DNA of 64,000 nt from Octopus vulgaris. Taxonomy: Eukaryota. Below the pieces are notes generated by a model that ran no database searches, was not told the DNA's origin, and saw only the letters and a list, made by a program, of their open reading frames with translations. How positions within the stretch are numbered: position 1 is the stretch's first letter; each line of letters starts with the position of its first letter. The position numbers were made by a program, and so were the translations under genes. The stretch is taken from positions 210,242,001 to 210,306,000 of the forward strand of contig OX597814.1 of assembly GCA_951406725.2 (NCBI GenBank), read 5' to 3'. Positions 33,210-54,169 of this stretch are shown in pieces.

Positions 33210-33888
33210 GAGGATAATATCGATATTTAAGTGTCGAAATTATCAAGTGGCCAGCATGAAAGAAATACCTTACAAAGGTAAACAAATTTTTAACAATTAA
33301 AAATGAGGGTGTCTAAAAGACACCAACATGCCGAAATAGCAGTCGAAACTCTGACTATAAAACCACGTTAAATGTTCATATCGCACCATGAGGTAAAGCG
33401 GAGGGGCAAAACATACAAGCAAAAATTATTGAATAATTCAAGATCCAAGGATTTCTGGTTCTGCTTTAGATAAATTATATATATAGATAAATCTCATATA
33501 TAAATTTATATAATTCGTTATTATATTCACTGCGGTGCTTATTTTAACCATATCGTACTTATGCGGTGATTTGGCGGGCGATTCAAGCTGGCTGTGTCCA
33601 TACGTGCATATGTATGTATGTGCGGCGCTCGTATATGTAAGTATATCGTTTGCTGTGCATATATATATCTGTATTTATGTACCCTTGATATATTCAATTG
33701 ATGACGGTAAAGCTTATCTAAAGCAGAACCAGAAATCCTTGGATCTTGAATTATTCAATAATTTTTGCTTGTATGTTTTGCCCCTCCGCTTTACCTCATG
33801 GTGCGATATGAACATTTAACGTGGTTTTATAGTCAGAGTTTCGACTGCTATTTCGGCATGTTGGTGTCTTTTAGACACCCTCATTTTT
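33210..33888 (+). mobile_element. PLE-like fold-back insertion in (TA)n: 175-bp inverted repeats plus one-sided tail
   Basis: 33299-33473 is the reverse complement of 33714-33888 (no mismatch seen). An extra ~89-bp tail (33210-33298) lies only on the left. (TA)n on both flanks. Confidence 0.85.
33692..33751 (+). ncRNA. Type-I hammerhead ribozyme motif
   Basis: ATTCAA-TTGATGA-C-GGT...ACC-A-GAAA-TCC-TT-GGA-TC-TTGAAT. 6-bp helix I, core with U at position 3, near-palindromic helix III, AUC cleavage triplet. Confidence 0.65.
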
Positions 33889-36514
33889 ATATATATATAT
33901 ATATATATATATATATATATATATATATATATATATATATAGTATTCACATACAAAAATACATACATGTACTTGTCTATACGTGGAAGAGTGAATAAGTT
34001 TACGTTATTCAGTAATTTATCGCGTAATTTCTGGGAACATGGTTTTGTAATGATAAGTAACAACAGAACCTGGTAATGTAAAATATGGTGTTTTTACCAG
34101 AAACCATGAAATATAAACAAAAACCTTTCATATATATACTCTTACACGCAAATTCACAGATATAACATAACTTGTTTTTAAAAGGTATTAACTAGAGGTT
34201 CATAGTTTTATTTGATGCAGATGCTGTACTTCTTTATATATATAAAAAATAAGTTCTTATATACAAAGCAATGTGAAATACGATACTAACAATATACAAA
34301 TAAATCAAAGCAATTATAGAAAACTGAGAAAAATATTCTCTATAAAAACTGAATGTTCAAAACAAAATGGGAGCCAAGTACAGTAGATGATAAAAAAAAG
34401 AGCAGTAAAGGAACCATAGTATTAATGCAGATATTATTGAAAGTAATAAATTGTCTGGAGAGAATATTCTAACGAAAGAGAAAAAAATGTAAGGAAAACA
34501 TAAATTCGACAAGGCATGTATCTGGAAACATGAAAATGCGATAAATGAGTTTAATAAGGCAAGTGAAACTAGATAAAGATGGTTACATCGACTGCTTACA
34601 TGGAAAGGTAACGAAAAAAAAAAAACAGAACAGTAAAAAAGAAAAACAGGACAAAAAGAGCAACAAAACAAAACGAAAACAAGAGCAAAAAGACAAGAAC
34701 AACAACGAATGTACGATTAGAAAAAAATGAAGCAGGGGAGAATCCAATAAAATAAGGTGCAAATAAAACAGCTGCTTCGTATAGGGAAGAACAGAGACGT
34801 GTGTATATATATATATATATATATATATATATATGTGTGTGTGTGTGTGTGTGTGTGTGTGTGTGTGTGCGTATGTTTGTATGTATATCTATGTATATAT
34901 GTAAGTATATAAATATGTATACATGTATGTATCTATCTATCTATCTACCTATCTATCTATCTATCTATCTATCTATCTATCTATCTATCTATCTATCTAT
35001 CTATCTATCTATCTATCTATCTATCTATCTATATATATATATATATAAGCATATATAAGCATGTATGGGTGTGTGTGTAGGATTTTATACAGATATAACA
35101 TCAAAATATACACGTACGTCTATAGAATTCCAAATATAGGAAGTAGGTGTACATGCATATAAGCATAAAATTACACCTAATTCCATAAACTTCCAACAGA
35201 GTTCATTCCATTTTATGTGTCCATACGCGCTACGACCATGTGCGTGTGTATAATTTCTTTCAAATCTGAAAAAGCATCATCTCTGCAGATAAATACACAC
35301 ATGTGTGTACTTTTAGGATATTCACGTAGAAACATGCTTACGTACGCCCATGCTCATATTTGCTTAAATATATACATGCACACAAACACGTAAACACATA
35401 TATGCATAAGGAAAAGATATAGAGAATAGTGAAGTGAGCGAGAAAGCGAATAAGATAAGTAAATCTTAATAACTTGGATATTTGTTCAACAGCTGCTGAC
35501 GATGTGAAGAATTAGATATCGGTTTCCATTGGCAAAAAACCCGAATCTTTATTGCTTACTTATATACGTAGAATGCAAGTAGTTCAATTAATATCGTTTA
35601 CAGTTTGTGAGCAGCATGCTTTATCGACAGGTGTGACAAACCACTATATATTTCTGTATACAGTGTCATCCACAAAATGTTTGAACTGTAACTACTTAGG
35701 GCACGTATCACTTCGTATACTAATGTGCGCTAGTTTTGTCAGCACATAACTGTCTATCTATCTATCTATCTATCTATCTATCTATCTATCTATCTATCTA
35801 TCTATCTATCTATCTATCTCTCTCTCTCTCTCTCTCTCTCTATATATATATATATATATATATATATATATATATCAATCTATCTATCTATCTATCTTTT
35901 TTTTATTTTTTGTTCTTTTTTTTTCCTTTTACGATCTTTTTTGATCGAAAACCTACGCCACCTTTTTTTTCTTTCTTTTTCTTTTTTTCATCCCCCAAAA
36001 GAAAAGCTCTACCTTGTAACTTGTCCCATCTGTGTGCAGCCCTGTGTGGCCAATAAAATAACTTATCTATCTATCTATCTATCTATCTATCTATCTATCT
36101 ATCTATCTATCTATCTATCTATCTATCTATCTATCTATCTATCTATCTATCTATCTACCCACCTACTTGTCTATCTGTCTAGCTGTATGTCCGTCTCTCT
36201 GTTTATGTATCTATTTTTTATACCATCGAGCAATTTATTCCTATTTTTGAGAATATTATTGGTCAGAATGTTTACTTTTGCTGTTCGCTTATATATTCAC
36301 AAAAGCAATAGTATATTGTCTTAGGAGTTGTGTATAAAAGGAACCCTATTATTCGACCAAAAATATTTCCACGCCCTATTGGGAACTCTACTCTAACAAT
36401 GGCCTTTTATATGCCATAACTGACAAGCAGTTATACACTGCTTAGTGATATAGAAATATATAGGCTGGAAATCAATTCAGACAAACTTTACGTGACGCAC
36501 TATACGATTTAGAC

Positions 36515-36906
36515 GTGGAGGCGCAATGGCCCTATTGGTTAGGGCAGCGGACTCGCGGTCATAGGATCGCGGTTTCGATTCCCAGACCGGGCGTTGTGAG
36601 TGTTTATTAAGCGAAAACACCTAAAAGTTCCACGAGGCTCCGGCATGGAATGGTGGTGATCCCTGTTGTACTCTTTCACCACAACTTTCTCTCACTCTCA
36701 CTCTTACTTTCTGTTTCTGTTGTACCTGTATTTCAAAGGGCCGGCCTTGTCACTCTCTGTATCACGCTGAATATCCCCGAGAACTACGTTAAGGGTACAC
36801 GTGTCTGTGGAGTGCTCAGCCACTTACACGTTAATTTCACGATCAGGCTGTTCCGTTGATTCGGATCAACCGGAACCCTCGTCGTCGTAACCGACGGAGT
36901 GCTTCC
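36515..36906 (+). mobile_element. Full-length tRNA-derived SINE, family A type-1
   Basis: Matches 6018-6399. 13-bp TSD ATACGATTTAGAC at 36502-36514 and 36907-36919. Confidence 0.93.
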
Positions 36907-52951: not shown

Positions 52952-53366
52952 TCTTTTATTCTCTTATTTATTTCAGTTACTTGACTGCGGCATTTAGTCG
53001 AGCAAATCAACCAGAGGACTTATTTTTGTAAGTCTAGTACTTATTCTATGGAGCACTTTTGCCGTTAAGTTACGAGTATGTAAACACACCAGCATGAGTT
53101 GCCAATCAATGTTGGGGGACAAACACAATCAGACACACACATATATGCATGCATGCATACATACGCACACACACACACATACATACATACATATATATAT
53201 ATATATATATATATATATATATATATATACGACGGGCTTCTTTCAGTCGCCGTCTACCAAATCTACACACAAGGTTTTAGTCGGCCCGAGGTGCCACGCA
53301 GTGGGACTGAACCCGGGACCATGTGGTTGGTAAGCAAACAACTTACCACACAGCCACTCGTGCGCC
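52952..53366 (-). mobile_element. tRNA-derived SINE family B (internally deleted)
   Basis: Matches 24856-25301 with deletions and an expanded internal microsatellite. Confidence 0.85.
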
Positions 53367-53620
53367 TATATATATGTTTTTAAAAGTGATGTACAGATTT
53401 TGCGTATCAAGAAAAAGGGAGGAAGAGGGGGAGGAGGAGAGAAGGTGTAGATAGGGAGGATAGAGAAAGAAAGCAGGAACAAAGAATGTATTTTGGGATG
53501 CTTTGTATAAGAAGCGACGAAATTTAACAGAAAATTTATTCCGTGTACCCACGAATGGACGAATGCTCTAAATAAGTAATTATCACGAATACATATATGT
53601 ATGTGTATATATATATATAT

Positions 53621-54169
53621 AAATTAATAATAAATATTAGGGAATAAATCCAAACTTACAGGGAAAAATCAGATTTAGGATTGAATCCAATTTTATAGTA
53701 AAATATTATATTATATTAAATTAGAGACAAAGCCACTATTAGGCAAATCATACAATGAAAAACTTAAGCCAATACATACGATTATTTAATTTATATTATT
53801 TAAATATATAACAAAATTATTAAAAAATATAATTAATATATCACTACGATCGTTTCATGGCTGTTAATTTCTTTAAATTTTCAAGTCACAGTCATTCATT
53901 AGGTGGTTTAAATATTTATCTTGGCGAGGTTCATTGTTTAAACCTCGCCAAGATAAATATTTAAACCACCTGATGAATGACTATGACTTGAAAATTTAAA
54001 GAAATTAACAGCCATGAAACGATCGTAGTGATATATTAATTATATTTTTTAATAATTTTGTTATATATTTAAATAATATAAATTAAATAATCGTATGTAT
54101 TGGCTTAAGTTTTTCATTGTATGATTTGCCTAATAGTGGTTTTGTCTCTAATTTAATATAATATAATAT
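53621..54169. mobile_element. PLE-like palindrome in (TA)n: 229-bp arms, 9-nt loop, ~82-bp tail
   Basis: 53703-53931 versus 53941-54169 inverted, 3 transitions by hand count. Tail at 53621-53702. (TA)n flanks. Confidence 0.9.
53967..54030 (+). ncRNA. Minimal type-I hammerhead ribozyme motif
   Basis: CAC-CTGATGA-ATGACT...AGCCAT-GAAA-C-GATC-G-TA-GTG. Canonical core, palindromic GATC loop III, GUA triplet. The mirror copy at 53842-53905(-) has CTAATGA. Confidence 0.75.

Follow-up and report, generated by a model that had tools for sequence, protein, structure and literature searches.

Fold-back insertions at TA repeats in Octopus vulgaris: probable Penelope-like elements with paired short and tailed ends and spliced copies of one family

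Why should palindromes of one design and mostly unrelated sequence recur within a few tens of kilobases, and how are they made? The question is raised by a 64,000-nucleotide stretch of the Octopus vulgaris genome (hereafter the window; positions 210242001-210306000 of contig 1), which has 34% GC and 54 tracts of (TA)6 or longer. Between window positions 33210 and 54169, fold-back insertions lie next to (TA)n tracts, each with two inverted arms and a tail on one side; they had been ascribed, from the letters alone, to Penelope-like elements (PLEs). Having searched the whole assembly (2.80 Gb, 227 contigs) for related copies, we consider it quite probable that they are abortive insertions of TA-targeting PLEs, together with likely non-coding passengers, in which both nicked strands of the target prime at two fixed sites of one sense RNA.

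Among PLEs a fold-back design of this kind is nothing unusual. Inverted pseudo-long terminal repeats (pLTRs), a one-sided tail, a (TA)n target and a hammerhead ribozyme are an already published PLE signature, drawn in Fig. 2 of PMC8557442. File S1 of that paper names Naiad and Hydra families of Octopus that target (TA)n; the original prediction, which knew of no detailed description in cephalopods and allowed that there might be one, thus concerned a design already described. PLEs account for 6.83% of one octopus genome, and the passages of PMC13282606 that report this make no mention of hammerheads or ribozymes. New here are a strict rule for the pairing of ends and the spliced, capped copies of one family, the two most informative features, both absent from the prediction. 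We found no report of the pairing rule, of twin priming in PLEs or of spliced, cap-marked PLE copies; key older papers lay outside that search, so that priority is uncertain.

Fold-back insertions and their two kinds of 3' end

Masked self-comparison and local alignment located six true fold-backs in the span, which we call A, G, B, D, E and F (Table 1). Seven had been predicted. The only candidate for the supposed insertion with a 13-bp arm is a stem-loop at 33213-33244, which is a real hairpin (z −3.7) and sits within the tail of every tailed A copy shown, so it is no separate insertion. The predicted arm lengths otherwise held: A 174-176 bp (33298-33473/33714-33889, 100% identical), G about 33 bp, B about 168 bp (within 43333-43680, 91%), D 146 bp (51327-51472/52363-52508, 97%), E about 39 bp and F 229 bp (within 53707-54165, 97%). 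The imperfect arms of G fit the predicted arm of about 33 bp; if the pair 43813-43843/44012-44043 was meant instead, it belongs to a tail-less element of fixed length, C, discussed below. As predicted, the arms are not related in sequence, with the exception of two weak matches, both AT-rich (A-F, 21 bp, E 0.008; D-F, 34 bp, E 0.001). On one side every fold-back comes to within 4 nt of a (TA)n tract, and on the other it bears a one-sided tail of 37-155 nt, except that the S end of E (defined below) adjoins a (TC)n-(TA)n run of 35 nt. By comparison, the share of the span found 20 nt or less from a TA tract is 9.6%.

Candidates from a first look across the genome, which are not copy numbers, came to 1347 for A, 2808 for B, 1602 for D, 2269 for E, 949 for F and 173 for G. 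We fetched 30 loci per family, so that only top-scoring or exact-match copies were looked at, some of them possibly segmental duplicates. In each family the 3' ends occupy one of two fixed sites, short (S) or tailed (L), and are followed by TA repeats. A TA run lies within 125 nt of the end of the query in 24/30 loci for A, 25/30 for B, 28/30 for D, 29/30 for E and 30/30 for F. The claim that several unrelated, high-copy, TA-targeting families of PLE type leave abortive head-to-head insertions with a one-sided tail is supported.

Could the palindromes instead be miniature inverted-repeat transposable elements (MITEs) or assembly artefacts? One MITE does lie in the same span: in 12 loci C is constant in length, carries short inverted repeats at its termini and is flanked by TA left and right, and by these terminal features it is a DNA-transposon MITE, presumably of Tc1/mariner type, and not a PLE. 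The complete identity of the A arms also fits an artefact. The arms of the other fold-backs differ by 3-9%, arm lengths vary freely within families, the ends are asymmetric and linked to open reading frames (ORFs), and the design recurs on many chromosomes; we regard this explanation as highly improbable.

The two kinds of end do not pair at random. All 83 distinct head-to-head pairs without internal TA join an S end to an L end (A 7, B 16, D 10, E 12, F 38); five further S+L pairs with TA inside were excluded from this count. Tailed ends make up 11-14 of 30 in unbiased searches, and chance would thus give S+L in about half of the pairs. In the 5' direction the S arm reaches further in 40 of the 83 pairs and the L arm in 26, with 17 ties that lie partly at the end of the reference; in four pairs the L arm stops inside the tail, short of S. 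In the 40 pairs the S arm has sequence beyond the L arm while the L arm has the tail, so fold-back copying cannot have made either arm from its partner. This bears on the self-priming model, in which one cDNA or antisense RNA folds back on itself to serve as template, trimming of one end by the endonuclease being the reason for a one-sided tail (PMC3846280, PMC8557442). Such a process accounts for S+L pairing and for identical arms, and it has on its side the small palindromes at several junctions and the 26 pairs in which the L arm includes the entire S arm. It is contradicted by the 40 pairs, unless there were later deletions, and by the four L arms that fail to reach S, and we think it unlikely.

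Three of the families are tied to PLE ORFs, D to the Neptune type, F to the Hydra type and E to one that is Hydra-like, so that the prediction that arms map to the 3' ends of such ORFs stands for these three. At the loci examined, no such link came to light for A, B and G, no search aimed at one having been made in G. The predicted GIY-YIG frame enclosed by D is real (51638-52372, minus strand). Its Pfam GIY-YIG match (E 0.0032) falls short of the curated cut-off; its DNA is 98-99% identical to a copy with a long frame of reverse transcriptase (RT) and endonuclease (EN), and the family extends to an 811-amino-acid RT-GIY-YIG frame (locus L061) whose RVT_1 match passes the cut-off (E 2.8e-7). 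D thus has the organization of an EN+ PLE, with RT followed by GIY-YIG in one frame and a pLTR in partial tandem or inverted arrangement with an optional tail. The Neptune linker and the internal CxxC of the CCHH-type endonuclease were found by regular expression, and its two His residues by eye. In the RNA, sites S and L of D are both followed by TATATAT (L061 2300-2307 and 2336-2343), which could base-pair with a (TA)n primer; the other families have merely AT-rich overlaps of 3-6 nt at their start sites. A consensus-like splice donor lies at about 2528 of L061, shortly after the start codon of D.

E extends into a Hydra-like endonuclease with CxxC and CxH, 38% identical to that of F (E 1.6e-13). 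The CxCX5C linker was not seen in E, Pfam GIY-YIG gave no match, and the RT core was not recovered. Long copies of F reach a full Hydra-clade element (locus L242) with RWK, DKT, CxCX5C, CxxC, CxH and a C-terminal EN without CCHH, the motifs being read separately in broken frames; F is accordingly no short non-autonomous element lacking a parent. Two Hydra-type frames (L177 1176-2474 and L241 5409-6245) have Asn-rich stretches between the RT thumb and the endonuclease that resemble the N-rich inserts described in rotifer Penelopes (PMC3846280).

Families A and B are non-coding tandem units. Sequence beyond the tail returns to the arm in 30/30 loci of A (a unit of 482 bp) and 29/30 of B (about 600 bp). 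A tblastn search with Neptune-type proteins gave no ORF link in the first 30 loci of each, and with Neptune- and Hydra-type proteins 30 further loci of each gave only unrelated neighbours. In G, whose inverted repeat scores 49 against a best of 38 in 20 shuffles, family copies are 68-92% identical; S/L-like ends and fold-backs were recognized by eye in 20 loci, and no hammerhead was seen there.

We searched for hammerheads with our own descriptor and with Rfam. Three had been predicted in or at the arms. The descriptor gave two in the window (F right arm, core 53970; D, core 51494 on the minus strand, with U3-A8), against none in 10 shuffles, and the core in the left arm of F has a point mutation. 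With Rfam, neither the window nor any of four loci gave a ribozyme, and in monomer folding the F hammerhead did not form and D and F were at shuffle level. F carries a canonical hammerhead together with its (TA)n target: the core is intact in 28/30 copies, the TA flank is present in 30/30, and stem II has a compensatory T-A/C-G change between subfamilies. The U3-A8 core of D is common to 30/30 copies. B has a type I core intact in 9 of the 11 copies that span it and so shares tandem unit and hammerhead with the retrozymes; its window copy is cut just downstream of the family hammerhead, and that of E is cut downstream of its own. A gave no hammerhead in 30 copies by the descriptor and none by Rfam; it behaves like a retrozyme of the non-LTR kind (LTR, long terminal repeat), and for want of a hammerhead we do not class it as one. 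A near-hammerhead with one core change in 44064-44268 (minus strand) is perhaps the third that had been predicted. This segment and 32006-32218 are single-ended, TA-flanked stubs of one family, 79% alike, and likely another PLE 3' end. The idea that F 5' ends pile up at the hammerhead cut was dropped (4/74 within 3 nt, p 0.27).

Spliced copies of family F

Long copies of F contain 694-966 nt between the bases corresponding to window positions 53956 and 53957, with ends GTATGT...TTTTAG in 12/12. The junction cannot slide, and the loss at 53956/53957 in the short copies is exactly that of a GT-AG intron, with its acceptor 13 nt upstream of the hammerhead core. Spliced copies are in the majority. 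Among the matches listed, the donor context gave 95 spliced and 5 unspliced (100 of 196) and the acceptor context 80 and 20 (100 of 433), tallied by hand, the acceptor pattern being blind to a second donor described below. Whole exon 1 has 73 exact genome matches, 56 spliced and 17 unspliced. Their 5' extent was measured for every spliced copy and for 14 of the 17 without splicing; it is no more than 50 nt upstream of the donor in 55/56 and 1/14, respectively (Fisher p 4e-12).

The 5' ends of spliced copies are also marked. Thirty-one of the 56 stop at one A, in what we take to be an initiator-like motif, and 24 of these 31 have a G where the template has T. An extra G of this kind is a known mark of a reverse-transcribed cap. 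Several of the extra Gs adjoin plain TA or A runs. The GT..AG joint is present in 3/3 contig sets presumed to be RNA, which are not independent and are silent on ends, strand and level, the joined form also occurring in DNA; no RNA entry was listed for the F repeat. In PMC3846280 the choice between an antisense and an unspliced sense template was left undecided. The splicing of F at sense-strand GT-AG sites and the untemplated G are unexpected from an antisense template and argue against it, which counts further against self-priming.

The two arms of a pair agree in splice state in all 26 classifiable of 27 F pairs (21 spliced, 5 unspliced), one additional pair has both arms spliced at the second donor, and the partner arm is nearest or co-nearest in 19/27.

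One could suppose that the intron-less F copies trace back to a DNA deletion in a single non-autonomous master locus, or in a handful of them, and not to repeated splicing. Like the SINE-like (short interspersed element-like) families, they are short and high-copy with a fixed 5' end, and the exon 2 tree (92 rows, a further 11 junctions having been left out as unclassifiable or too short) is weakly resolved, with one starred branch. On that tree spliced and unspliced copies are intermixed, with 11 changes, and a single clade of unspliced copies is rejected (approximately unbiased test, p 0.0002). Four hammerhead haplotypes are each found both spliced and unspliced. Exact GT-AG ends on introns of differing length, the joining of a second donor to the same acceptor and the extra G at the stop base likewise speak against master loci. 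We consider this origin quite improbable, and some spliced loci may have undergone secondary amplification.

The second donor lies in the 2.2-kb 3' region of F, 218 nt after the stop codon, and its splicing to the same acceptor removes 1795 nt, including the start site. At 30 loci with the ORF end, the exon 1-exon 2 junction was never found (0/30), and the intron was kept in all 17 that show exon 1. The second donor had been spliced in 7/30, with 22 unspliced and one interrupted, and genome-wide in 6/51; the notion that the downstream repeat is never spliced was given up on the strength of the seven.

Proposed mechanism and points that weigh against it

These copies likely arose through twin priming on a single sense RNA that was spliced and capped. 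A PLE dimer would nick both strands of a (TA)n target, one subunit priming from S and its partner from L of the same sense RNA. The second cDNA would then displace the first, or stop, and the two cDNA ends would be joined head-to-head, often through short overlaps. In F the template would be spliced, capped RNA. Priming near the cap would yield solo repeats of 250-330 bp without an ORF that end at the transcription start, and priming in the downstream repeat would yield ORF-bearing copies, mostly with the intron kept or spliced at the second donor. Splicing at the second donor would cost the start site and exon 1, so start site and intron would be inherited only through unspliced downstream repeats. 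We infer the dimer, the single RNA and the loss of the promoter. Intron retention would reflect partly inefficient splicing of the downstream repeat and partly the survival of the sole products that bear a promoter, since spliced copies would lose either the ORF (cap-proximal splicing) or the promoter (distal splicing). The significance of intron retention in PLEs is stated to be unknown in the passages of PMC8557442 that deal with it. As a tentative generalization, the PLE dimer may obligately twin-prime one RNA, the RT may freely copy spliced, capped mRNA, intron retention may amount to product loss, and the same machinery may move retrozyme-like tandem RNAs with or without a hammerhead.

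Several points count against this interpretation, which comes from comparing sequences. In the searches for B and E and for 30 of the F loci the tail was part of the query, which forced one end of each pair to be L. The identity of the arms could equally arise by gene conversion between them. Some of the extra Gs in F may derive from the partner arm, and the start is not single: in 25 of the 56 spliced copies the start base is preceded by T, and 18 have an extent of 35-51 nt. Among the 5' repeats that precede the ORF (6 classifiable of 30 loci), one is spliced, four are unspliced and one is other, which means that full-length F copies do not derive mainly from mature mRNA; a proposal that full-length copies have a spliced 5' repeat holds for L242 only. 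Splicing was seen in F alone, the D and E loci having no recurrent GT-AG deletion. In E, one copy has the G among the matches listed (100 of 177), and neither a single start nor a cap-derived G is supported for this family. For A and B, which are likely non-coding passengers, it is the insertion signature by itself that points to movement by a PLE, and the same holds for G, with no ORF link.

These young, high-copy families make inverted-repeat formation and intron retention in PLEs testable. From strict S+L pairing and agreement in splice state one would expect a coordinated dimer acting on a single RNA. The spliced copies with a cap mark number in the hundreds and would identify sense mRNA as the template and locate where it starts. 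A and B add insertion-level support for the mobilization of retrozyme-like RNAs by PLEs.

Features of the window and comparison with known systems

Table 1. Fold-backs and MITE of the studied span (window positions; S, short end; L, tailed end)
Family	Feature	Positions	Strand
A	(TA)n flank, L end	33165-33198	
A	Tail of about 100 nt, L end, includes the stem-loop	33199-33297	-
A	Inverted arm, L side	33298-33473	-
A	Spacer and arm to S end, part of the non-coding tandem unit	33489-33889	+
G	Old fold-back, imperfect arms of about 33 bp and 35-nt tail	40231-40418	+
B	Inverted arm ending at S	43333-43500	-
B	Arm and 100-nt tail (L), part of the non-coding tandem unit	43512-43780	+
C	MITE, 235 bp, terminal inverted repeats of about 32 bp, TA on both sides	43811-44045	
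D	3' untranslated region/pLTR ending at S on (TA)n 51277-51327	51328-51637	-
D	Minimal type I hammerhead, U3-A8 core, 7-bp stem I, palindromic stem III	51463-51501	-
D	5'-truncated ORF end: CX2-5CxxC linker and GIY-YIG endonuclease (Neptune/Nematis type)	51638-52372	-
D	Inverted arm of 146 bp and 42-nt tail (L) on (TA)n 52550-52569	52363-52549	+
E	L end 52570, 155-nt tail, arms of about 39 bp at 52727-52820; Hydra-like PLE 3' end	52570-52820	-
F	Tail (53622-53706) and inverted arm, spans exon 1-exon 2 junction, hammerhead core point-mutated	53622-53931	-
F	Exon 1 remnant, begins one base short of the common stop base (putative transcription start)	53929-53956	+
F	Exon 2 to S end	53957-54165	+
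F	Minimal type I hammerhead, core 53970-53976, predicted cut after 54027	53967-54030	+
F	S-end (TA)n flank	54166-54178	

Other repeats share the window with these insertions. A further TA-flanked fold-back (32272-32537; arms about 72%, one-sided tail) adjoins the studied span, and short TA-bounded inserts without inverted arms at 32827-32960, 39880-40056 and 40486-40700 resemble PLE 3' stubs. The segment 42727-43304, between TA tracts, is presumably a broken Tc1/mariner-type transposase remnant, judged by its motifs. Pif1-like helicase fragments at 61317-62107 (Pfam PIF1, E 5e-14) are probably a Helitron remnant. Frame fragments at 49805-50278, 30316-30882 and 8556-8828 look by eye like those of non-LTR retrotransposons and have no Pfam match. 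Two abundant SINE-like families have several copies in all, at 3829-4119, 6015-6401, 23115-23422, 27422-27820, 36515-36920, 41732-41920, 24863-25301, 44861-45273 and 52944-53374.

The proposed mechanism recalls twin priming by L1, where the other strand of the target also starts synthesis inside the same RNA, giving an inversion. Unlike those of L1, the PLE pairs prime at fixed internal sites, the overlap between their cDNAs usually amounts to tens to thousands of bases, and both ends are 3'-end-like. A biochemical parallel is the PAc Poseidon element of Anolis, which in vitro cuts both strands and extends them, starting at two internal sites that delimit the tail, and is predicted to act as a dimer (PMC11167929). 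That study saw no difference in start site between strands and did not address pairing, whereas the octopus pairs are always S+L.

D resembles the Neptune/Nematis-type PLEs in its RT, CX2-5CxxC linker, GIY-YIG with internal CxxC, DKG motif, pLTR, 42-nt tail and microsatellite target; assigned by motifs, it is left undistinguished between Neptune and Nematis. Its hammerhead with the U3-A8 core is a variant known from the Schistosoma Cercyon PLEs (PMC4209133).

F shares with the Hydra-clade PLEs, Hydra-1_Obim among them, a C-terminal GIY-YIG without CCHH, the RWK-like, DKT, CxCX5C, CxxC and CxH motifs, a hammerhead, a (TA)n target and inverted truncated copies with a one-sided tail (PMC8557442). 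The passages of that paper on this clade mention neither an intron nor spliced copies, whereas F has both, along with its 3' region with two donors, and its hammerhead differs from the one listed there for Hydra-1_Obim. In Drosophila virilis Penelope, as in F, the pLTR holds the start site and a spliceosomal intron that ends just before the hammerhead, and there is an inverted pLTR and a tail; the intron begins 46 nt after the start site (PMC2377424) and ends at helix I of the hammerhead (PMC4209133). By these accounts Penelope retains its intron in genomic copies, unlike F with its excess of spliced exon 1 copies, and the F intron is about ten times longer.

Finally, B resembles the animal non-LTR retrozymes in being a non-coding tandem unit with a type I hammerhead, and A in being a tandem unit of similar size; they differ in that B is about 600 bp and that neither the descriptor nor Rfam found the ribozyme in A. 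Retrozymes have been proposed to be passengers of PLEs (PMC7229834; bioRxiv 10.64898/2026.07.22.740005). As far as the passages of these papers go, the PLE insertion signature is one that they infer, and A and B display the whole of it, with S and L ends, TA repeats and inversion.

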